NCBI GenBank assembly: GCA_017510525.1
Contig: JAFWNC010000007.1
Coordinates: 25,858-89,857 of the forward strand
Length of the DNA: 64,000 bases
Source: Clostridia bacterium
GTDB lineage: Bacteria > Bacillota > Clostridia > TANB77 > CAG-508
Direction of reading: 5' to 3'
Position numbers and translations under genes: made by a program. Shown in pieces: positions 2,979-41,400 of this stretch. Numbering within the stretch: position 1 is the first letter of the stretch; every line of letters begins with the position of its first letter. The notes under the pieces were generated by a model that was given only the letters and a program-made list of their open reading frames with translations, was not told the DNA's origin and did no database searches.

Positions 2979-5495
2979 ATGTTTATGGATTTTTTTAATG
3001 AGATTTATCTTGATAAGGAAAAAGATATTGTTGTTAAATTGTTTAAATCTGGTGAAGATGAAATGGCTTATATTGTTGAGACTCCTAATCATAATTCCGG
3101 AAATTTAATTTCTAATTTGGCTAAGGTTTGTGGCGCTTCAACTGTTAAAGATGAAAATGATATGAAGATTATTAAAGGAGTTATTCCGGCAAGTTTAAAT
3201 GGCGATAATGAAGAGGTATATATTTTAAGACTTGGTGGAATTAAGATTGCTAATATTTATAATGATGGAAGAATTGAGAACAAGGCTACTATTTCATCTC
3301 TTATGAAGACTTTTATGTCTCAAACAAAGGATTATAAATTTGGTGTTGATAAAACAATTATTAAATCTTATTTACTTAAAAAGGAAAAATTTAAAACAGA
3401 TTTACATACTCATATGAATGCTATTTTGTCTACTGACTGTTTAGTTGCGCTTGGAATCAGTCATCAAATTAAATATCCGTTATATTATATAAAGAAGTTA
3501 GATTTGAAATTATCAGAATCTCAGGAAAAAGAAATTTATAAGCAAAGAAAAAAAGTTGAAAAAGAGTTCAAAAATTCTTCTTTAATGGGCAAATACTTAA
3601 CTCGAAAAATAGATGATAATACTTTTATTAATTTTGCGGATTTAATTTTAAACAATTTGGATAATTGTAAGGAAAACATTAAAAAAATAAGAAAGAGTTT
3701 GGCGATAATAAAAGATGGTCAGGCTGTTTTTTCTAACCTAGAAAAAGCATATATTTATAGATATGTTTTTTCTAAGGGAGTTGAGAGTGATAAAACTGAG
3801 AGAATTGAATTAGAAAAAGATAAAATTGATAAAATCCCTCAAAAAGATATAAAAAACATTGTTTTTAAAATGTTGGATGATAAGAAAAGAGGAAGTATTT
3901 ATAGAAAAAATACTTTAAGACAAAATAAGTTGTTATGGGTAGCTAGGGAGTATCAAAAACAGGGTATTTATTATGTTGAAATTTCTGAAACAACTTTGGC
4001 TAAAAAGGGTCTTCCTGCAATTGAATTCCTTGAAGAGGTTCATGAGATAATGCCTAAAATAGAGGAAGAAACTGGAGTTAGAATTAGATTTTTAGTTGGA
4101 TTTAGAAGAGTTCCTCTTTTTATAGTTAATGACAATACTCAAGGAAGTGGATATTTAAGAGAGGCTTTGAGTGTTTTAAAAACAATTAGTAAAGATCCTT
4201 ATGTTGTTGGTAGTGATTTTATTGGTGAGGAAATAAATGATATTCGTGAATTAAAGCCTGTTATAGAAGAAATTGTTCAATATGTTGAAAATGAAGATAA
4301 TGGCTATACTATTAAGATGCATGCTGGTGAAAATGATGGAATAAAAGATAATGTTTATTATTCTATTAAGTGCGTTAAAGACTCGCTTAAAAAATCTAAG
4401 ACTATGCCTAAAATTCGTATTGGACATGGTTTATATACTCCTGAGCTTTCTTCAAAAGCTGGGCAAGATCTTATAAAATTAATCAAAGATTCTAATGCTA
4501 TTTTAGAGTTTCAAATTACTTCAAATGTTAAATTAAATAATTTAAGTAGACTTGATAAACATCCTTTAAAAAAATATTTGTCTGAAGGAATAAGATGTGT
4601 TCAAGGAACAGATGGATGCGGAATGTATGGAACTGATGCTATTGAAGAACAATTGGCATTAAAAAATATTTTAGGATTAACTAGTGAAGAATTTGAAAAA
4701 ATGAGAAATGTTGAAAATGAGGTTATAGAAAACAGTAGAGCTTATTTTAAGGAAAAATCTAAGAAATTTGAGAAGTTTTTAAATGGAAGAAGTTTGAGAG
4801 ATGGGTTACTTGAAGAGGAATATAAAGTAATTGATGAGGATTTAAAGAGGAATGTTAAGCTTAGATTAACTGAAAAAATTCCTGTTGAAAATGAGCTTGG
4901 AGATATGATTAAAGAATTACCTACTGATAAGATTCCGATTATTGTTGCTGGTGGTAGTTTTAATGGACAACATAACCAAACTATTGCTTATGAAGAAGAA
5001 ATCAGTATTTTGAGAAATTTAATTTTAAATATTGATGAGAAGAAGGCGTTTTTTGTTATTGGACATAAAATTGAGGGGTATGAAAAAGAGGTTCTTGATT
5101 TGTGTAAGAAGTTTAATAATAAGATTGAGGTATATTCTATTATTCCTAATATGGTTGAGAAGGATGTTTTAGAGAGATTAAAACAAAGTAGTCTTGTTGG
5201 GATAAGGCCTGCTATTGATAGTGATGATTTTGGAATTTATAAGAGTTTTAATTATGAAGTTTTTGAAAGAAGGGATTCAATAGTTATTGCTTTAGATGGT
5301 AATTCTCCTGTTTATAATTTGATTCAAGAAGCTAAGAATGGTAAGGGAAAGGCTAGAATTTATATTAATAATAAGAATAGGAATTTACGTAATAAGGCTA
5401 ATACTTTAGAGGGATATGTTACTGTTTTTGAGATTGAAGATGAGGTTTGGAGGGTGATTCTAAAAGATAAGCCCGAGATTGCTAAGAAAGAATAG
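2979..5495 (+). CDS. adenosine/AMP-deaminase-fold protein fused to a C-terminal Rossmann-like SLOG/LOG-type domain
   Basis: 838-aa ORF. Metal-dependent deaminase motifs appear in the canonical order: DLHTHMNA (HxH), MHAGEND (HAGE), RIGHGLY, ITSNVKLN, QGTDGCGMYG. The C-terminal ~200 aa (IPIIVAGGSF...FFVIGHK...VIALDGNSPVYNLIQEA) looks like a LOG/DprA (SLOG) nucleotide-binding fold. Confidence 0.7.
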   Translation: MFMDFFNEIYLDKEKDIVVKLFKSGEDEMAYIVETPNHNSGNLISNLAKVCGASTVKDENDMKIIKGVIPASLNGDNEEVYILRLGGIKIANIYNDGRIENKATISSLMKTFMSQTKDYKFGVDKTIIKSYLLKKEKFKTDLHTHMNAILSTDCLVALGISHQIKYPLYYIKKLDLKLSESQEKEIYKQRKKVEKEFKNSSLMGKYLTRKIDDNTFINFADLILNNLDNCKENIKKIRKSLAIIKDGQAVFSNLEKAYIYRYVFSKGVESDKTERIELEKDKIDKIPQKDIKNIVFKMLDDKKRGSIYRKNTLRQNKLLWVAREYQKQGIYYVEISETTLAKKGLPAIEFLEEVHEIMPKIEEETGVRIRFLVGFRRVPLFIVNDNTQGSGYLREALSVLKTISKDPYVVGSDFIGEEINDIRELKPVIEEIVQYVENEDNGYTIKMHAGENDGIKDNVYYSIKCVKDSLKKSKTMPKIRIGHGLYTPELSSKAGQDLIKLIKDSNAILEFQITSNVKLNNLSRLDKHPLKKYLSEGIRCVQGTDGCGMYGTDAIEEQLALKNILGLTSEEFEKMRNVENEVIENSRAYFKEKSKKFEKFLNGRSLRDGLLEEEYKVIDEDLKRNVKLRLTEKIPVENELGDMIKELPTDKIPIIVAGGSFNGQHNQTIAYEEEISILRNLILNIDEKKAFFVIGHKIEGYEKEVLDLCKKFNNKIEVYSIIPNMVEKDVLERLKQSSLVGIRPAIDSDDFGIYKSFNYEVFERRDSIVIALDGNSPVYNLIQEAKNGKGKARIYINNKNRNLRNKANTLEGYVTVFEIEDEVWRVILKDKPEIAKKE

Positions 5496-5504
5496 TAGTA
5501 TATG

Positions 5505-5699
5505 ATGATTACTTAAAAAGTCTTTTTGTTCTTTGTTGCCCTCGACTGGGTAGATTCTATTTTTTTGCTTCAGCTTCCCCAATGGAGGCTGTAACTCACT
5601 ATCGTTCGAACAGCCCTCATCGGTCCCCACAACGCTTCGCTGTAAAAATAGAACTACCCGCACGGGCTTTAGGTTCTTATTTACTTTTTAAGTAATCAT
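5505..5699 (+). other. 195-nt GC-enriched imperfect palindromic element, candidate structured RNA
   Basis: Outer inverted repeat ATGATTACTTAAAAAGT (5505-5521) pairs with ACTTTTTAAGTAATCAT (5683-5699). Inner arms pair with bulges, e.g. GGGTAGATTCTATTTTT with AAAAATAGAACTACCC. Internal hairpin CAGCTTCC-CCAAT-GGAGGCTG. The mismatches are G-T type on the + strand. Confidence 0.35.
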
Positions 5700-5709
5700 T
5701 AGTGTTCTC

Positions 5710-5738
5710 TTGACATTATTGGGGGTTAATGGTAATTT
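5710..5738 (+). promoter_or_regulatory. sigma-A-like promoter candidate (TTGACA-17-TAATTT)
   Basis: TTGACA at 5710-5715, 17-nt spacer, TAATTT at 5733-5738. Lies upstream of the small ORF and the transketolase genes. Confidence 0.4.
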
Positions 5739-5770
5739 ATTTATGGGGCTATACCTTTTAGGAGGTATAT

Positions 5771-6007
5771 ATGAATAATGACGAAATTTTGAAAAGAATT
5801 TTTGAAAAGGTTTCTAATATTGAGGATTATTTGGAGGAAATTAATCAAAATATTGGAATTTTATTAGAAGAAAATGAGGATAATAAATTAGAACATTTAA
5901 TGTTAATGACAAGATTTGAAAATTTGGCAGATTTTATAAAAGACAAATATAATGTTGTACTTGAAGAAAATGAAGAATACCTAACGAAAGATTGTAGGGG
6001 CGACTAG
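5771..6007 (+). CDS. small acidic hypothetical protein
   Basis: 78-aa ORF with RBS aggagg 6 nt upstream. No family recognised. Confidence 0.5.
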   Translation: MNNDEILKRIFEKVSNIEDYLEEINQNIGILLEENEDNKLEHLMLMTRFENLADFIKDKYNVVLEENEEYLTKDCRGD

Positions 6008-6023
6008 AAAAAAGGAGGTTTTT

Positions 6024-6851
6024 ATGAGGGTTAGTGATGATGATATTAGAGATTTAGAGAGGGTTGCGGTTGAGGTCCGTAAAAGTGTTGTTGAAGAGGT
6101 TTATTTAGCTAAATCTGGTCATCCTGGTGGTGCTCTTTCTTGTGTTGATATTTTGGTTTCTTTATATTTTAATCAGATGAATATTAATCCCGAAAAACCT
6201 GATGATGAGAATAGAGATAGATTTATTCTGTCTAAAGGCCATGCGTGTGCTGCTTTATATGCTGTTTTGGCTCATAGAGGTTATTTTGATAAAGAGTTGT
6301 TGAAGGGTTTTAGAAAGCTAGGTAGTCCTCTTCAGGGACATCCAGATAAAAATAAGCTACCTGGAATTGATATGAGTTCTGGTTCTTTAGGACAAGGCTT
6401 ATCAATTGCAAATGGAATGGCATTATCTTCAAAGCTTGATAGTAAAGGTTTTAGAGTTTATTGTTTAGTAGGTGATGGCGAGATTCAGGAAGGACAGTTT
6501 TGGGAAGCGGCTATGAGTTCAAGTCATTATAAGTTAGATAATTTATGTTTGATTGTTGATAAAAACAATTTACAGATTGATGGGAGAACTAAGGATGTTA
6601 TGAATGTTGATCCTCTTAACAAAAAGCTTGAAAGCTTTGGTTTTGAAGTTTTTGAGGTCGATGGAAATAACATTGATGAAGTTATTAGTGTTCTTCAAAA
6701 GGTTAAAACAATTAAGGGAAAGCCATGTGCAATTATTGCTAATACAGTAAAAGGTAAAGGTGTTTCTTATATGGAAAATAAGGAAGAATGGCATGGGAAG
6801 GCTCCAAATGAAGAGGAGTTTAATAAAGCAATTGAAGAATTAAAATTTTAA
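6024..6851 (+). CDS. tkt: transketolase, N-terminal (thiamine-diphosphate-binding) subunit
   Basis: GHPGGALS and GDGEIQEG TPP-binding motifs. Size (275 aa) is typical of split clostridial transketolase. Confidence 0.9.
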   Translation: MRVSDDDIRDLERVAVEVRKSVVEEVYLAKSGHPGGALSCVDILVSLYFNQMNINPEKPDDENRDRFILSKGHACAALYAVLAHRGYFDKELLKGFRKLGSPLQGHPDKNKLPGIDMSSGSLGQGLSIANGMALSSKLDSKGFRVYCLVGDGEIQEGQFWEAAMSSSHYKLDNLCLIVDKNNLQIDGRTKDVMNVDPLNKKLESFGFEVFEVDGNNIDEVISVLQKVKTIKGKPCAIIANTVKGKGVSYMENKEEWHGKAPNEEEFNKAIEELKF

Positions 6852-6852
6852 A

Positions 6853-6959
6853 ATTAAGCACAATATAGTAATTTTTCAGCTTAGGCTGCGGACGCTCTGC
6901 TATTTTTGACTATGTCAAAAACACCTTGCCACGCTTCAAAATTCTATATTGTGCTTAAT
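6853..6959 (+). repeat. ~107-nt structured intergenic repeat, copy 1 (between the two transketolase subunit genes)
   Basis: Core ATATAGTAATTTTTCAGCTTAGGCTGCGGACGCTCTGCTATTTTTGACTATGTCAAAAACACCTTGCCACGCTTCAAAATTCTATAT. Flanked by a copy-specific inverted repeat ATTAAGCACA/TGTGCTTAAT. Confidence 0.8.
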
Positions 6960-6985
6960 AATAATATTAAATAGGAGAGAAGAGT

Positions 6986-7918
6986 ATGGATATTGATAAT
7001 AAAAAAGCCACAAGACAAAGCTATGGTGAGGCTTTAGTAGAACTTGGAAAAAAGAACAATAATATTGTTGTTTTAGATGCTGATTTATCTACTGCAACTA
7101 AAAGCAATATGTTTAAAAAAGAATTTCCTGAAAGATTTTTTGATATGGGAATTTCTGAACAAGATATGATGGGGACTGCTGCTGGAATGGCAAGCTGTGG
7201 TAAAATTCCTTTTGCTAGTACATTTGCTGTTTTTGCTGCAGGAAGAAGCTATGATCAAATTAGAAATTCAATTTGCTACCCTAAGTTAAATGTAAAGATA
7301 TGTGGTAGCCATAGCGGAGTTACTGTAGGTGAAGATGGAGCAACTCATCAAATGCTTGAAGATATTAGTATTATGAAAGCTCTTCCTAATATGACAGTAT
7401 TTTCTGTTTCTGATGATATTGAAACTAAATGGGCTGTTTCTGAAGCTGCTAAGATTAATGGACCTGTTTATATAAGAACTTGTAGGGCTAAAACTCCAGT
7501 TATTTATAATGAAAATCAAGAGTTTGAACTTGGAAAGGCTGTTAAGATTGGTGATGGAACAGATGCAACAATTTTTGCAACAGGTGTTACTGTTTCTGAA
7601 GCTGTTTTGGCTAAAGAAGAATTAGAGAAACAAGGAATTAATGTTAGAGTTGTAGATATTCATACTATTAAGCCTATTGATAGTGAAATGATTGTAAAAT
7701 GCGCGAAAGAGACTAAGAAATTGATTTCTATTGAAGATCATAATGTTATTGGTGGATTAGGTAGTTCAATTGCTGATGTTTTAGCTGAAGAGTATCCACA
7801 AAAGCTTATAAAAATGGGGATAAATGATAGGTTTGGTGAGTCTGGAACTAGTGGAGAGCTTATGGAAAAATTTAATCTATTAAGTGTTGATATTATTAAT
7901 GTTGTAAAATCTAATTAA
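6986..7918 (+). CDS. tkt: transketolase, C-terminal (pyrimidine-binding) subunit
   Basis: 310 aa. GISEQDMMGTAAG and EDGATHQ motifs. Confidence 0.9.
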   Translation: MDIDNKKATRQSYGEALVELGKKNNNIVVLDADLSTATKSNMFKKEFPERFFDMGISEQDMMGTAAGMASCGKIPFASTFAVFAAGRSYDQIRNSICYPKLNVKICGSHSGVTVGEDGATHQMLEDISIMKALPNMTVFSVSDDIETKWAVSEAAKINGPVYIRTCRAKTPVIYNENQEFELGKAVKIGDGTDATIFATGVTVSEAVLAKEELEKQGINVRVVDIHTIKPIDSEMIVKCAKETKKLISIEDHNVIGGLGSSIADVLAEEYPQKLIKMGINDRFGESGTSGELMEKFNLLSVDIINVVKSN

Positions 7919-14825: not shown

Positions 14826-14854
14826 TTGACATATTTAAATCATTCAAGTATAAT
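14826..14854 (+). promoter_or_regulatory. consensus sigma-A promoter for the tRNA pair
   Basis: TTGACA (14826-14831), 17-nt spacer, TATAAT (14849-14854). Lies 20 nt upstream of the tRNA. Confidence 0.7.
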
Positions 14855-14874: not shown

Positions 14875-14951
14875 GCTCCCTTAGCTCAGTTGGTCAGAGC
14901 AACCGGCTCATAACCGGTGGGTCCAAGGTTCGAATCCTTGAGGGAGCACCA
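14875..14951 (+). tRNA. tRNA with CAU anticodon (elongator Met or lysidine-modified Ile2)
   Basis: Acceptor GCTCCCT/AGGGAGC, anticodon arm ACCGG-CTCATAA-CCGGT, T-arm GGTTCGAATCC, encoded CCA. Anticodon stem lacks the three G-C pairs of an initiator. Confidence 0.85.
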
Positions 14952-14971: not shown

Positions 14972-15275
14972 GGGTAGGTGGTCGAGTGGTTAAAGGCACC
15001 AGACTGTGGTCTTTGGTTTTATGACCTAAACTTGCAGCTCATATAAGTGATTATATGATGAACACCTTGCTAATTCGGGGAACCCTTAACAGTTAGGCTG
15101 ATGGCAATCCCGAGCTAGAAAAGAAATTTTCGAGTGTAGAGACTTTATACAAGGTATCTTGAGAAAGATAAAGAGAAAGTCCAGACTACAAACAAGAAAT
15201 TGGTAGCGAAAGCTATAGTAGTAAGAAATCTGGCCGCGAAAGCGTACGATGGTTCGAATCCATCCCTGCCCACCA
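14972..15275 (+). tRNA. tRNA-Tyr(GUA) gene interrupted by a ~218-nt group I intron in the anticodon loop
   Basis: 5' exon is GGGTAGG-TG-GTC..GGC-A-CCAGA-CTGT. 3' exon is AAA-TCTGG, long variable arm CCGCGAAAGCGTAC, T-arm GATGG-TTCGAAT-CCATC, then CCTGCCC-A-CCA. Joined exons give loop CTGTAAA. Confidence 0.8.
15008..15225 (+). mobile_element. group I (IC3-like) self-splicing intron
   Basis: Follows exon U (CTGT|) and ends in G (GTAAG|AAATCTGG). Core strings AATTCGGGGAACCCTTAA, GATGGCAATCCCGAGCTAG, GTGTAGAGACT and GCTATAG closely resemble, from memory, the Azoarcus/Anabaena tRNA intron core. Confidence 0.7.
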
Positions 15276-15276
15276 T

Positions 15277-15307
15277 AAAATACAAGTGTAACTTGTATTT
15301 TATTTTT
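15277..15307 (+). terminator. rho-independent terminator after tRNA-Tyr
   Basis: AAAATACAAGT-GTA-ACTTGTATTTT followed by T-rich sequence. Confidence 0.7.
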
Positions 15308-15344
15308 ATACGTAAAACGAACAAAAGTTCTAAAAGGAGGGAAA

Positions 15345-15728
15345 ATGATATTTTCAACAAATAAAGAAAAAGGAAATACTTCATTAGGTGTTGCAATTGC
15401 TTATTATTCTTCGAACGGGTATACAGTTTCAATTCCATTAAATGATACACAAGATTATGATTTGATAGTTGATAAAGATAATAAACTTAAGAGAATTCAA
15501 GTAAAGGGTTCAAGTTTTAAAGATAAACGTGGAAAGTATCAGGTTGCTTTAAAGAGTTGTGGAGGAACAAAGGGAAAAACTTATAAAACAGTAAAGGATA
15601 CAGATATAGAAGAACTTTTTATTTTATTAGATAGTATGGAAATATATATAATACCTAAAGAAATAATCAATAATAATTCTACAATTAATATATGTGAAAA
15701 ATATAGTAAATATAAAGTGACATTGTAA
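15345..15728 (+). CDS. PD-(D/E)XK-type endonuclease-like protein (group I intron-associated endonuclease family-like)
   Basis: 127 aa with strong RBS aaggaggg. Pattern GNTSLGVAIAYYSSNGYTVSIP..DYDLIVDKDNKLKRIQVKG matches the small PD-(D/E)XK family that, as I recall, includes I-Ssp6803I. Confidence 0.55.
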   Translation: MIFSTNKEKGNTSLGVAIAYYSSNGYTVSIPLNDTQDYDLIVDKDNKLKRIQVKGSSFKDKRGKYQVALKSCGGTKGKTYKTVKDTDIEELFILLDSMEIYIIPKEIINNNSTINICEKYSKYKVTL

Positions 15729-15890
15729 TATTCTTTTTTTATATACTTGTAAGGTACTTTGTTTGAATTATGACAAGGACAAAAATCCTTGATATATGGC
15801 TTAAAGTATAGTATAATAATGTTATGTAAATTTTTACAAATATTTTAAGAAAGGTTGCGGATAGATTTATCTGCAAAAAGGTAATTTTTT

Positions 15891-16781
15891 ATGGGAACAT
15901 TAAAGCGGAATATCTTAGAGTACTTTTATGGCGAAAAAAAGGTTGATCTTGTATCAGCAATTGCGTCATATATTAAAGATATTGGTCCAAGTCAGGAAGC
16001 AACATTTTGGAAACTCTATTTAAAAAGTGCTCTTGATGAAAAGTATCATGACAGATTAAGAGGATTATTCAATTCCCTTCATGACTTTGTTAAGAAAAAT
16101 GTTGTCGACTATGGTTTTGAAATTGAAGCTAGAGGTAAATCGTTTAAGTCAACTCTTGAAAAGAAAATGAAAGTACAGAGCGAGAAGAAGTCGTTGGATA
16201 CGATTAAAGATTTTGTTGGATTTAGAATTGTAATCTATTCTGGCAAATCTGAAATTGAGCAGATTTATGATGCTCATCGTCTTGCAAAAATCTGTGTTGA
16301 TTTTTTCGAAGGTCAGGGGTATATTCCTTGTAAGGCTGACGATGTAAAAGAAACTGATGGCTTTGATAAAAACAAATGTAGTATCGATATTCCTGAAAAA
16401 GAAAAGGTAGAAGAGATATTAGGTGATTATTATGGTTTTTTTAAAAATTACAATTTAACACCTAAGGCAAATGGCTATCAGGCAATCCATGTTATTTTTA
16501 AAGATGATGAAGGTCGATATATCGAACTTCAGATCAGAACTTTAGAACAGGATGCACGTGCAGAAAATGATAGTTGCGAAGAAGAGAAATCAGTAAATGT
16601 AGATGTCGAAGACGAATATCTGGATGCTGGTCATGATGAATATAAGAAAAAATATAAAAAGATCTTTATTGATTATGATAGAGTAAATCTTATAGGATTC
16701 ATCAAAACCGGAAAAAAGATAAAAGACGTCGTTGGTTTCACAAAGGCATTATTGATCTACCATCGTACCAGAAAAAAATAA
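15891..16781 (+). CDS. RelA/SpoT-homologue nucleotidyltransferase (small alarmone synthetase / toxSAS-like)
   Basis: Synthetase motifs in order: RGKSFKSTLEKK, DFVGFRIVI, GYQAIHVIF, ELQIRTLEQ. 296 aa with extra N- and C-terminal regions. Visibly GC-richer codon usage than its neighbours. In-frame CGG at codon 6. Confidence 0.7.
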   Translation: MGTLKRNILEYFYGEKKVDLVSAIASYIKDIGPSQEATFWKLYLKSALDEKYHDRLRGLFNSLHDFVKKNVVDYGFEIEARGKSFKSTLEKKMKVQSEKKSLDTIKDFVGFRIVIYSGKSEIEQIYDAHRLAKICVDFFEGQGYIPCKADDVKETDGFDKNKCSIDIPEKEKVEEILGDYYGFFKNYNLTPKANGYQAIHVIFKDDEGRYIELQIRTLEQDARAENDSCEEEKSVNVDVEDEYLDAGHDEYKKKYKKIFIDYDRVNLIGFIKTGKKIKDVVGFTKALLIYHRTRKK

Positions 16782-34759: not shown

Positions 34760-34848
34760 GCAGATGTGGCGGAATTGGCAGACGCACAGGACTTAAAATC
34801 CTGCGAGGGTTAAACCTCGTGCCGGTTCGACTCCGGCCATCTGCACCA
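34760..34848 (+). tRNA. tRNA-Leu(UAA)
   Basis: Acceptor GCAGATG/CATCTGC, anticodon arm CAGGA-CTTAAAA-TCCTG, long variable arm, T-arm GGTTCGACTCC, encoded CCA. Hairpin plus T-run follows. Confidence 0.9.
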
Positions 34849-38426: not shown

Positions 38427-38776
38427 GGGGATGTAATGGTTTCGACAATATCTCGGAACTATAAATAGCGAGTAGTGGAGCGCCAGGCCACTATAAAAGA
38501 CGCATAAAAAATAAACGCTGATAATAATGAATTAGCATTTGTTGCCTAAGCGCAGCAACGTCTTACTCCAGTAACCTACGACTAGAGATTAAGGCGCCAA
38601 ATTAGTAGGAAACGAATTTGTCTCTTTCTTCAGAGATAAAGGGATTTTTAGAAGATATATTTAATAATCGTTTGTTTATTAATGTTTATTAAACGAATTT
38701 AAATAATAAACTGCACTCGGAGAAGTTTATAGGGAAGGGGTGTTGGACAGGAGTTCGATTCTCCTCATCTCCACCA
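38427..38776 (+). ncRNA. ssrA: tmRNA (SsrA)
   Basis: 5' end GGGGATGTAATGGTTTCGACA, 3' tRNA-like end GGACAGGAGTTCGATTCTCCTCATCTCCACCA. Tag frame GCT GAT AAT AAT GAA TTA GCA TTT GTT GCC TAA (38517-38549, ADNNELAFVA). Extended -10 TGTATAAT at 38411-38418. Confidence 0.92.
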
Positions 38777-41127: not shown

Positions 41128-41159
41128 TTTTAAAATTATGTTAATATATTATATAGTAA

Positions 41160-41400
41160 AAATCTTTGAGAAAGTTAAGTAGATTTAGGGTTAATATATT
41201 TAGAGAGAATAGGCCTTGGCTGAAAGCCTATTTATATATTCTTAAATTGAAATTTCGCTTTTTAGATGCTAGATTGAAGGTTTATAGTAGGTTTGGCCGG
41301 TTGTTACGTTATAACATTAGTTAAGGTTAATTATTTATAATTAATAAATTTAGGTGGTACCACGGAGCATTTCGTCCTATTAGGATGAAATGCTTTTTTG
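41160..41400 (+). promoter_or_regulatory. T-box riboswitch leader of pheST
   Basis: AGAGAG stem I element. T-box sequence AATTTAGGTGGTACCACGG (41347-41365). Terminator AGCATTTCGTCCT-ATT-AGGATGAAATGCT plus T6. UUC (Phe) triplets lie in the specifier region. Confidence 0.85.

Follow-up and report, generated by a model that had tools for sequence, protein, structure and literature searches.

A tRNA-Tyr gene of gut Clostridia split by a group I intron and adjoined by a predicted homing endonuclease gene

Class IC3 group I introns reside in a small set of tRNA genes: tRNA-Leu(UAA) in cyanobacteria and plastids, tRNA-Ile(CAU) in Azoarcus, tRNA-Arg(CCU) in Agrobacterium, and tRNA-fMet in cyanobacteria. 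A 2014 review (PMC3984707) and the papers on tRNAscan-SE 2.0 and tRNADB-CE mention only tRNA-Leu, tRNA-fMet, tRNA-Ile2, and related hosts; in that review, all phage introns then known lie in protein-coding genes. Among the homing endonucleases, I-Ssp6803I and its close homologs are generally encoded in cyanobacteria, and I-Ssp6803I recognizes a 23-bp pseudo-palindromic target (PMC3384342). Collaborative homing has been defined for the endonuclease F-CphI and the psbA intron of cyanophage S-PM2 (PMC6083498). Here, we describe a locus that combines elements of these systems: a tRNA-Tyr(GUA) gene of an uncultured gut Clostridia bacterium that is interrupted by a short group I intron and followed by a free-standing gene of the I-Ssp6803I endonuclease family. 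The gene lies at 14972-15275 of a 64-kb stretch of DNA (28.8% G+C), the whole of which is called the window below; the gene content of the window is typical of spore-forming Clostridia (FtsX, M23 peptidases, an S41 protease, an alpha/beta-type small acid-soluble spore protein, and transfer-messenger RNA, tmRNA). Comparisons with related loci, which carry three-digit L numbers here (structural loops have short names such as L1 or L9b), confirm that the gene is split by a group I intron.

When joined, the two exons (Table 1) make an 86-nt class II tRNA-Tyr(GTA) with the anticodon loop CTGTAAA; the predicted junction is CCAGACTGT joined to AAATCTGG or, equivalently, a 5′ part ending in CAGACUGU joined to AAAUCUGG. 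The insertion point lies in the anticodon loop, after U35, and ARAGORN run in intron mode returns identical boundaries, in agreement with the original prediction of an interruption between positions 35 and 36. No shift of these boundaries is possible, as the intron begins with G where exon 2 begins with A, and ends with G where exon 1 ends with T; the insert, its last exon base U35, and its terminal G all read in the sequence as had been claimed. Why, then, is the gene overlooked by standard annotation? Without its intron mode, ARAGORN calls only tRNA-Met, tRNA-Leu, and tmRNA in the window and misses the split gene, and Rfam at its gathering score reports neither a tRNA nor an intron at 14972-15275. 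This silence is an issue of sensitivity, not a sign of absence. A search of a 451-nt region matched RF00028 at 15011-15206 over the full model (1-253), significantly (46.8 bits, E = 6.4e-11) though 3.2 bits under the Rfam gathering score of 50, which bears out the expectation of the original prediction that a group I covariance model would recognize the insert. A family member, L054, scores 55.7 bits, above the gathering score, and more than 140 of the loci fetched carry the same split tRNA-Tyr gene.

The case for a folded ribozyme rests on covariation. A hand-drawn group I structure was laid on an alignment of 66 distinct pre-tRNAs and compared with controls in which helix partners were slid by 1-3 columns, and with 500 shuffles. 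Standard pairs are formed by 98.7% of alignment cells, against 37-44% in the slid controls; 37 pairs show double changes, against 10-13; and none of the 500 shuffles reaches any observed covariation measure. Compensatory pairs occur in P2, P3, P5, P6, P8, and both P9 hairpins (counts in Table 1), the changes in the P9 region being TAGC/GCTA, TAGT/ACTA, and TAAC/GTTA, whereas P1, P4, and P7 are invariant, P1 being paired in every sequence; the helix that closes the P9 region (15186-15189/15218-15221) shows one-sided changes only. The internal guide sequence UUGCAG is identical in 66/66 short introns, with its four P1 pairs formed every time, and its UU can, we infer, pair with the first two bases of exon 2 (A+1 and A+2, that is, A36-A37) as a short P10. 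Because P1 draws on anticodon-loop bases only, the anticodon stem can persist while the guide is engaged. L2 is a GNRA tetraloop in all 66 sequences, in six variants, and the loop of the 15204-15215 hairpin (L9b) is GAAA in all 66; this conservation is the pattern expected of tetraloops in tertiary contacts. The last intron base is likewise G in every sequence. Two alternative pairings were rejected: a P1 between GGUC at the intron start and exon AGAC, since the intron opens with four bases that vary freely within the family, and a P9 between CUAC and GUAG at 15203-15206, since alignment position 235 covaries with 242 and not with 215. The single-sequence fold of the intron gives z = -1.99, a measure that is uninformative owing to the pseudoknot. 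The intron has a conserved ribozyme fold, and guanosine-dependent self-splicing would be its expected activity.

Is the interrupted gene a working one? Exon 1 of the window is 100% identical to that of an uninterrupted relative, L225, and, across the 66 pre-tRNAs, every tRNA stem (acceptor, D, anticodon, variable, and T) shows compensatory changes, those of exon 2 falling in its variable, T, and acceptor stems. These changes, together with the perfect sigma-70-type promoter of the operon, indicate that the gene is under selection as a working tRNA, and make the pseudogene alternative that the original prediction had allowed for unlikely. No second tRNA-Tyr gene was found in the window (with either ARAGORN mode) or in any fetched locus. 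Logan contigs that begin inside exon 2 were considered as a second copy and rejected: many co-occurring species share the T-arm/acceptor sequence, which breaks assembly graphs. We have high confidence that this is a functional group I intron within a functional tRNA-Tyr gene, with splicing predicted from these patterns.

To which lineage does the intron belong? Its position in a tRNA anticodon loop (35/36) and its length (214-247 nt across the family) are IC3-type traits. The original prediction had called it IC3-like and quoted four strings that it ascribed to the Azoarcus/Anabaena core; all four are present (AATTCGGGGAACC, ATGGCAATCCCGAGC, GTGTAGAGACT, and GCTATAG), but the last is the 3′ strand of an internal GAAA-capped hairpin and not the 3′ end of the intron. 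Two observations back the IC3-like label: the nearest relatives of the core among viral contigs are tRNA-Leu(UAA) introns, and the window intron has the GNRA L2 and the invariant GAAA tetraloop near its 3′ end. The 23-mer AAGAGAAAGTCCAGACTACAAAC, from J8/7-P7, occurs exactly in five viral contigs (IMG/VR), inside phage tRNA-Leu introns, and nhmmer matches to these viral introns reach E values of 1e-17 to 1e-31, with the core and the 3′ tail near-identical, which suggests kinship. The viral host tRNA is called as tRNA-Leu(UAA) in L101 and L103; in L104, the guide differs, GGGUC pairing with exon GACUU. The tRNA-Tyr intron looks like a retargeted member of this tRNA-Leu(UAA)/IC3 lineage, apparently shifted by one nucleotide along an anticodon loop whose 3′ exon, AAAUC, is similar. 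The viral introns lie at L100 13138-13337, L101 3221-3983, L102 2976-3163, L103 1354-2129, and L104 2756-3069; the L101 intron has an insert of ~450 nt, and that of L103 carries a 165-aa HNH-like open reading frame (ORF) in L1. A search of a phage collection found only a 70-nt core similarity, to introns of Staphylococcus phage K/812, and a search of a plasmid collection found only tRNA exon matches.

The original prediction had left out the gene next door. Beginning 70 nt downstream of tRNA-Tyr, an ORF encodes a protein that matches PF11645 with 67 bits (E 2.2e-18; cut-off 26.1) and the PADLOC HEase model (5.6e-8). Both a single-sequence search (E 1.5e-5) and a profile search (4.2e-6) of the PDB give one significant sequence match only, 2OST, the structure of I-Ssp6803I, a homing endonuclease whose gene lies within the Synechocystis PCC 6803 tRNA-fMet intron. 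Residues D39, Q52, and K54 are invariant in alignments of 23 and 27 sequences and at least 97% conserved in 79 unique sequences, and D39...Q52-x-K54 aligns with the YDL...QVK of 2OST. The gene is under purifying selection, with a median ratio of nonsynonymous to synonymous substitution rates (dN/dS) of 0.21 over 2787 gene pairs. We are fairly confident that the protein acts as a homing enzyme for the tRNA-Tyr locus, an activity predicted from its family and its position. In biological terms, this neighbor turns what looked like a static intron into one half of a probably mobile pair.

Table 1. Features of the split tRNA-Tyr locus and its surroundings, in window coordinates
Feature	Position	Strand	Description and basis
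Sigma-70-type promoter of the tRNA-Met/tRNA-Tyr operon	14826..14854	+	TTGACA-17-TATAAT; 12/12 consensus; ~20 nt before tRNA-Met; kept in L225
tRNA-Met(CAT), co-transcribed neighbor	14875..14951	+	ARAGORN; RF00005 73.3 bits
tRNA-Tyr(GUA) exon 1	14972..15007	+	36 nt; tRNA positions 1-35; ends in CAGACTGT; ARAGORN intron mode
P1, 5′ strand	15004-15007	+	exon CUGU, last four bases of exon 1
Group I intron, without ORF	15008..15225	+	218 nt; starts GGTCTTTGG, ends GTAGTAAG; RF00028 and covariation
P1 extension hairpin in L1	15012..15030	+	3/6 pairs compensatory (GGTT/AACC, GATT/AATC, GCTT/AAGC)
Internal guide sequence UUGCAG	15032..15037	+	P1 formed by GCAG and exon CUGU, the splice-site pair being G.U
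P2 hairpin with GNRA tetraloop GUGA	15039..15058	+	7/8 pairs compensatory
P3	15065-15069 with 15150-15154	+	3/5 compensatory; encloses P4, P5-P5a, P6, and P7 5′ strand
P4	15074-15080/15108-15114	+	invariant; 99.6% paired
P5-P5a	15084-15104	+	P5 1/2 compensatory
P6	15118-15131	+	5/5 compensatory
P7, pseudoknot, presumed guanosine-binding helix	15139-15144 with 15178-15182	+	invariant; 100% paired
P8 hairpin, then J8/7 and P7 3′ strand	15155..15182 (P8 15155-15170)	+	P8 3/6 compensatory
P9 region: two hairpins, 3′ tail, terminal omega-G	15186..15225 (hairpins 15193-15202 and 15204-15215; omega-G 15225)	+	P9a 2/3 and P9b 2/4 compensatory
tRNA-Tyr exon 2	15226..15275	+	50 nt; tRNA positions 36-76; starts AAATCTGG, ends CCACCA (CCA encoded); ARAGORN
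A+T-rich terminator-like hairpin and T-run, between tRNA and endonuclease gene	15277..15308	+	read from sequence
Free-standing homing endonuclease gene (predicted)	ORF 15345-15728; Shine-Dalgarno GGAGG 15336-15340	+	127 aa; I-Ssp6803I family, PD-(D/E)XK

How is this pair distributed? Homologs of the endonuclease number 1927 in the protein collection, and at least 128 endonuclease-encoding stretches occur in species-representative genomes, mostly metagenome-assembled genomes (MAGs) of uncultured gut Clostridia (e.g., Clostridium sp. CAG:567 and CAG:354) with a few Bacilli-like ones. From these, 80 endonuclease-anchored loci were fetched; they are spread over at least four unrelated gene neighborhoods. 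In 62 of the 80, tRNA-Tyr(GTA) is split at the same position by a 214-247-nt intron, with the endonuclease gene downstream. Two more, L065 and L098, have an intron of ~605 nt with the endonuclease ORF inside the P1 loop (L1, in place of the P1 extension), the only loci where it is intron-encoded; these are Bacilli-like genomes, in which the same intron and endonuclease families sit in a very different, Bacilli-type tRNA-Tyr. Four loci (L038, L057, L071, and L091) have an uninterrupted tRNA-Tyr followed by the endonuclease gene, ten have only a tRNA-like 3′ end ahead of it, and two are too short for judgement.

A second survey, anchored on the intron, scanned metagenomes and recovered at least 120 stretches with an intron junction; among 69 evaluable loci, 39 have a full-length endonuclease gene, 6 have fragments only, and 24 (~35%) have none. 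Introns without and with the endonuclease are alike in quality (median 214.8 vs. 218.2 bits; all six core motifs in 19/23 vs. 29/31): the intron is retained independently of the endonuclease and, by these measures, is equally intact without it. The endonuclease gene can be present or absent cleanly, as between L166 and L119, whose flanks are 91-97% identical and which differ by an indel of a ~420-bp cassette that extends to the ORF stop codon from a point ~40 nt beyond the tRNA, immediately behind the terminator hairpin. The intron, too, comes and goes precisely at the exon junction in two syntenic pairs, L071 vs. L053 and L038 vs. L023. A third sample, anchored on the conserved upstream gene, holds five lineages that have tRNA-Tyr at the locus; all five carry tRNA-Met and an uninterrupted tRNA-Tyr, with neither intron nor endonuclease. 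The closest relative among them, L225 (91% identity in the neighboring protein and an unchanged gene order), has a tRNA-Tyr gene at 4181-4266 that matches the exons of the window at 100% identity and lacks exactly 15008-15225; unrelated sequence stands in place of the endonuclease cassette, and the surrounding intergenic DNA is ~78% identical. Both the intron and the endonuclease gene are precise presence/absence polymorphisms. Intron divergence shows no correlation with that of the exons (Mantel r = 0.01, p = 0.38), many pairs having introns more alike than their exons, and the endonuclease gene is seen in decay, as truncated ORFs (L094 and L096) and fragments. The decay, the Bacilli-type host, and the divergence patterns fit repeated gain, decay, and loss, not simple vertical descent.

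Several further observations concern the junction between the tRNA and the endonuclease gene. The terminator-like hairpin, which did not satisfy the G+C criterion of a terminator scan, is co-conserved with the endonuclease ORF, back to the tRNA 3′ end, in all compared loci. Four loci without tRNA-Tyr can be set against normal relatives (L058 vs. L174, L081 vs. L082, L073 vs. L077, and L093 vs. L078); in each pair, the two sequences are near-identical over the endonuclease ORF and the terminator ahead of it, and this similarity ends within the last 3-11 nt of the tRNA (CACCA), so that the conserved unit includes the tRNA 3′ end. In four loci, an element of ~70 nt replaces tRNA-Tyr before the endonuclease gene (L051 ~560-632, L058 ~290-359, L095 ~380-453, and L097 2060-2137): it consists of an 8-bp hairpin and a 5-bp acceptor-like stem closing a small hairpin with the loop UUGUAAAU, which resembles the tRNA-Tyr anticodon loop CUGUAAA, followed by ACCA and the usual terminator. 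Possible identities are a mini-helix resembling tRNA-Tyr, a mimic of the target, and a decayed gene. In L225, 21 nt of the tRNA-Tyr 3′ end recur exactly at 4413-4433, ~146 nt past the real gene and accompanied by a terminator, and in L232 resolvase, recombinase, and TnpV genes (4961-7023) directly follow tRNA-Tyr; the 3′ end of tRNA-Tyr appears to be a hot spot of integration within the clade. Finally, the contig start of L094 (1-73), ~700 nt upstream of its truncated endonuclease ORF, has a sub-threshold match to group II intron domain V/VI (RF00029, 36.2 bits, E 0.0014).

We consider it likely that the ribozyme is needed to make tRNA-Tyr and that it has spread with the neighboring homing endonuclease, as in collaborative homing. 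The promoter would transcribe the tRNA-Met/tRNA-Tyr operon, giving a precursor that holds the 218-nt IC3-type ribozyme in the anticodon loop. P1 would form between GCAG of the guide and C32-U35 of the anticodon loop, placing a U.G wobble at the splice site and leaving the anticodon stem intact; exogenous guanosine, bound in P7, would attack after U35; and the freed 3′-OH of U35, aligned by the short P10 (UU with A36-A37), would then attack after the terminal G at 15225, joining the exons into a functional tRNA-Tyr(GUA). The endonuclease would be expressed probably at a low level, via read-through of the tRNA terminator hairpin, and would most likely cut tRNA-Tyr loci without the element; recombinational repair from an element-bearing copy could then move the cassette, and with it the intron by co-conversion, into the empty locus. 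Activity, target, and direction of transfer are all inferred. In the collaborative-homing version, the intron would split the enzyme's target and thereby protect the host gene. This last part, with the insertion site as the target and the intron as the source of immunity, is a tentative one, and we lean slightly against it.

What weighs against this account? On the ribozyme side, the RF00028 score of the window intron is below the gathering score, and covariation is uninformative on P1, P4, and P7 because these helices never vary. On the protein side, an AlphaFold2 model of the endonuclease (mean predicted local distance difference test score, pLDDT, 75.5; predicted template modeling score, pTM, 0.70; shallow alignment) found no match with E < 0.6 when searched against the PDB with Foldseek. 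Endonuclease divergence tracks the exon type (r = 0.44) more than the intron (r = 0.25), and thus the intron and the endonuclease have not always been transferred as one unit. A further objection comes from the four loci in which an intact-looking endonuclease (D39, Q52, and K54 present) stands beside a tRNA-Tyr without the intron; three of these tRNAs share their anticodon stem-loop, base for base, with the joined exons of intron-bearing alleles. A simple model in which the intron confers immunity is thereby disfavored, unless those enzymes are silent or inactive; two or more deviations at conserved positions are seen in 2/4 of them, vs. 6/79, a weak excess. The ten loci in which the endonuclease gene adjoins only a tRNA-like 3′ end also count against the account.

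The main rival, which is unlikely, is intron-independent ("intronless") homing: the endonuclease may home on a site outside the intron insertion point, for example at the junction of the tRNA 3′ end and the terminator or in the downstream flank of loci without the endonuclease gene, with the intron as a passenger. The host copy would be protected by the endonuclease insertion itself or by local differences, and the intron, 120-340 bp away, would be co-converted as in the case of T4 mobE and the defunct I-TevIII intron, a precedent for trans-homing (PMC2790892). This would accommodate the four endonuclease-bearing loci with an uninterrupted tRNA-Tyr and the ten with bare 3′ ends, the makeup of the conserved unit (the last 3-11 nt of the tRNA, the terminator, and the endonuclease gene to its stop codon), the introns without an endonuclease in ~35% of loci, and the weak correlation of endonuclease and intron divergence. 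It sits poorly with the placement of the endonuclease ORF inside the intron in L065 and L098, which only makes sense if the target is the intron-less tRNA-Tyr. The anticodon stem-loop, moreover, is a natural pseudo-palindrome of the kind recognized by this fold, and I-Ssp6803I, presumably the sole characterized member of the family, targets a tRNA gene at the insertion site of its intron (in part after PMC3384342).

Could the pair instead serve its host? It is improbable, in our view, that the two form a restriction-and-immunity system, in which the endonuclease would cut incoming DNA with an uninterrupted tRNA-Tyr gene or 3′ end while the intron shields the host; the targets would include phages with tRNA genes and integrative elements whose attachment site is the 3′ end of tRNA-Tyr. 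If true, this would explain the dN/dS of 0.21 in more than 100 gut species, the endonuclease genes beside displaced tRNA-Tyr 3′ fragments, and the match to the PADLOC HEase model.

Even less probable is a vertically inherited, immobile relic, with the intron as an obligatory processing step, the endonuclease domesticated or tolerated, and losses as the only events. Two observations would suit such a history: the divergence of the endonuclease tracks the exon type, and its gene is maintained by purifying selection in more than 100 species, which would be unusual if it were purely selfish. The tRNA-Leu introns of chloroplasts and cyanobacteria are considered immobile for the most part (PMC5733544). 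Against this reading stands the comparison with L225, in which the exons are identical and both elements differ while the flanks are ~78% identical. A loss-only history would also need many independent, precise double losses because all five synteny-anchored lineages are empty, and it is at odds with the uncorrelated divergence of introns and exons, the occurrence of one intron family in both Clostridia-type and Bacilli-type tRNA-Tyr genes, and the endonuclease fragments and truncated ORFs, a decay typical of the homing cycle. A non-functional insertion, that is, a dead ribozyme in a tRNA-Tyr pseudogene with an intact copy elsewhere, could draw on the sub-gathering RF00028 score and is nonetheless a negligible prospect, given exons and introns conserved with compensatory changes in 66 distinct sequences, a promoter that matches the consensus perfectly, introns that stay intact even where the endonuclease is gone, and the lack of a second tRNA-Tyr gene in the window and the fetched loci.

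In the neighborhood of the pair, tRNA-Met precedes tRNA-Tyr in 41 genome loci; the Rfam Plastid-ycf2 5′UTR model matches tRNA-Met in antisense (14900-14949, minus strand, in the window, and in many other loci) at a sub-threshold 24-54 bits, which looks like a model artefact. Downstream of the endonuclease, behind a promoter-like site at 15789-15817, a gene on the plus strand (15891-16781) has a 296-aa product that contains a RelA_SpoT nucleotidyltransferase domain (PF04607, 1.3e-14) and matches PADLOC PDC-S33 weakly; this is a small alarmone-synthetase-like or toxSAS-like gene. We considered it as part of the cassette and rejected this, as the gene is conserved even in L225, where intron and endonuclease are both absent. 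Elsewhere in the window, tRNA-Leu(UAA), the classical IC3 intron host, is uninterrupted (34760-34848), and tmRNA (38427-38776) encodes the tag ADNNELAFVA. A T-box leader at 41157-41382 (102.9 bits) was rejected as a sensor of tRNA-Tyr because it precedes pheS/pheT.

What does this locus add? It places tRNA-Tyr(GUA), position 35/36, and gut Clostridia on the short list of bacterial tRNA group I intron hosts, and takes the I-Ssp6803I family outside the cyanobacteria. The original prediction had not been aware of a described tRNA-Tyr host, and we found no report of a bacterial tRNA-Tyr group I intron in the literature, the coverage of which was incomplete, so novelty is unproven. The pair is common, with at least 128 genome stretches and at least 120 metagenome stretches with an intron junction. 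Since default ARAGORN and Rfam at its gathering score miss both the tRNA and the intron, tRNA-Tyr seems missing from such genomes, and this apparent absence affects tRNA-based scores of MAG completeness. If the split gene is the sole tRNA-Tyr gene, translation in these bacteria depends on a ribozyme. Every state of the life cycle is represented in one family, from the empty site through the endonuclease alone, the intron alone, the adjacent pair, and the decaying endonuclease to the endonuclease inside the intron. These states form a natural series on which the proposed route from free-standing endonucleases and ORF-less introns to mobile introns can be tested.

Among described systems, F-CphI and the psbA intron have a matching layout: there, as here, an ORF-less group I intron is paired with a free-standing endonuclease gene that adjoins the interrupted gene, and both are optional among relatives. 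By contrast, the window pair resides in a bacterial chromosome and a tRNA gene rather than in a phage and a protein gene, and its enzyme belongs to the PD-(D/E)XK rather than the Endo VII-like type; that this enzyme would cut at the insertion site, and that the intron would protect its host, are predictions against which the four loci with endonuclease and no intron count. Trans-homing by T4 mobE/I-TevIII (PMC2790892) offers another parallel, a free-standing endonuclease near an intron that could spread this intron by co-conversion; the T4 case concerns a phage nrdB intron with a defunct internal endonuclease gene, whereas the window intron is short and has no ORF remnant. I-Ssp6803I supplies the protein relative, at a sequence identity of only ~25% and with a different tRNA host: its ORF lies inside the intron, as in L065 and L098, whereas the window gene and most others are free-standing, ~70 nt past the tRNA and behind a terminator hairpin. 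The ribozyme itself follows the design of bacterial tRNA IC3 introns, being compact (~220 nt), ORF-less, and located in the anticodon loop, with a P1 built from loop nucleotides while the tRNA body stays folded, a GNRA L2, and a GAAA tetraloop near the 3′ end. It departs from them in its host, tRNA-Tyr(GUA); in its insertion after U35, not after U34 as in the viral tRNA-Leu(UAA) genes; in its guide, GCAG instead of GGGUC; in a P1 extended by a hairpin; and in the organisms that carry it, which are gut Clostridia and a few Bacilli-like MAGs rather than cyanobacteria and proteobacteria.

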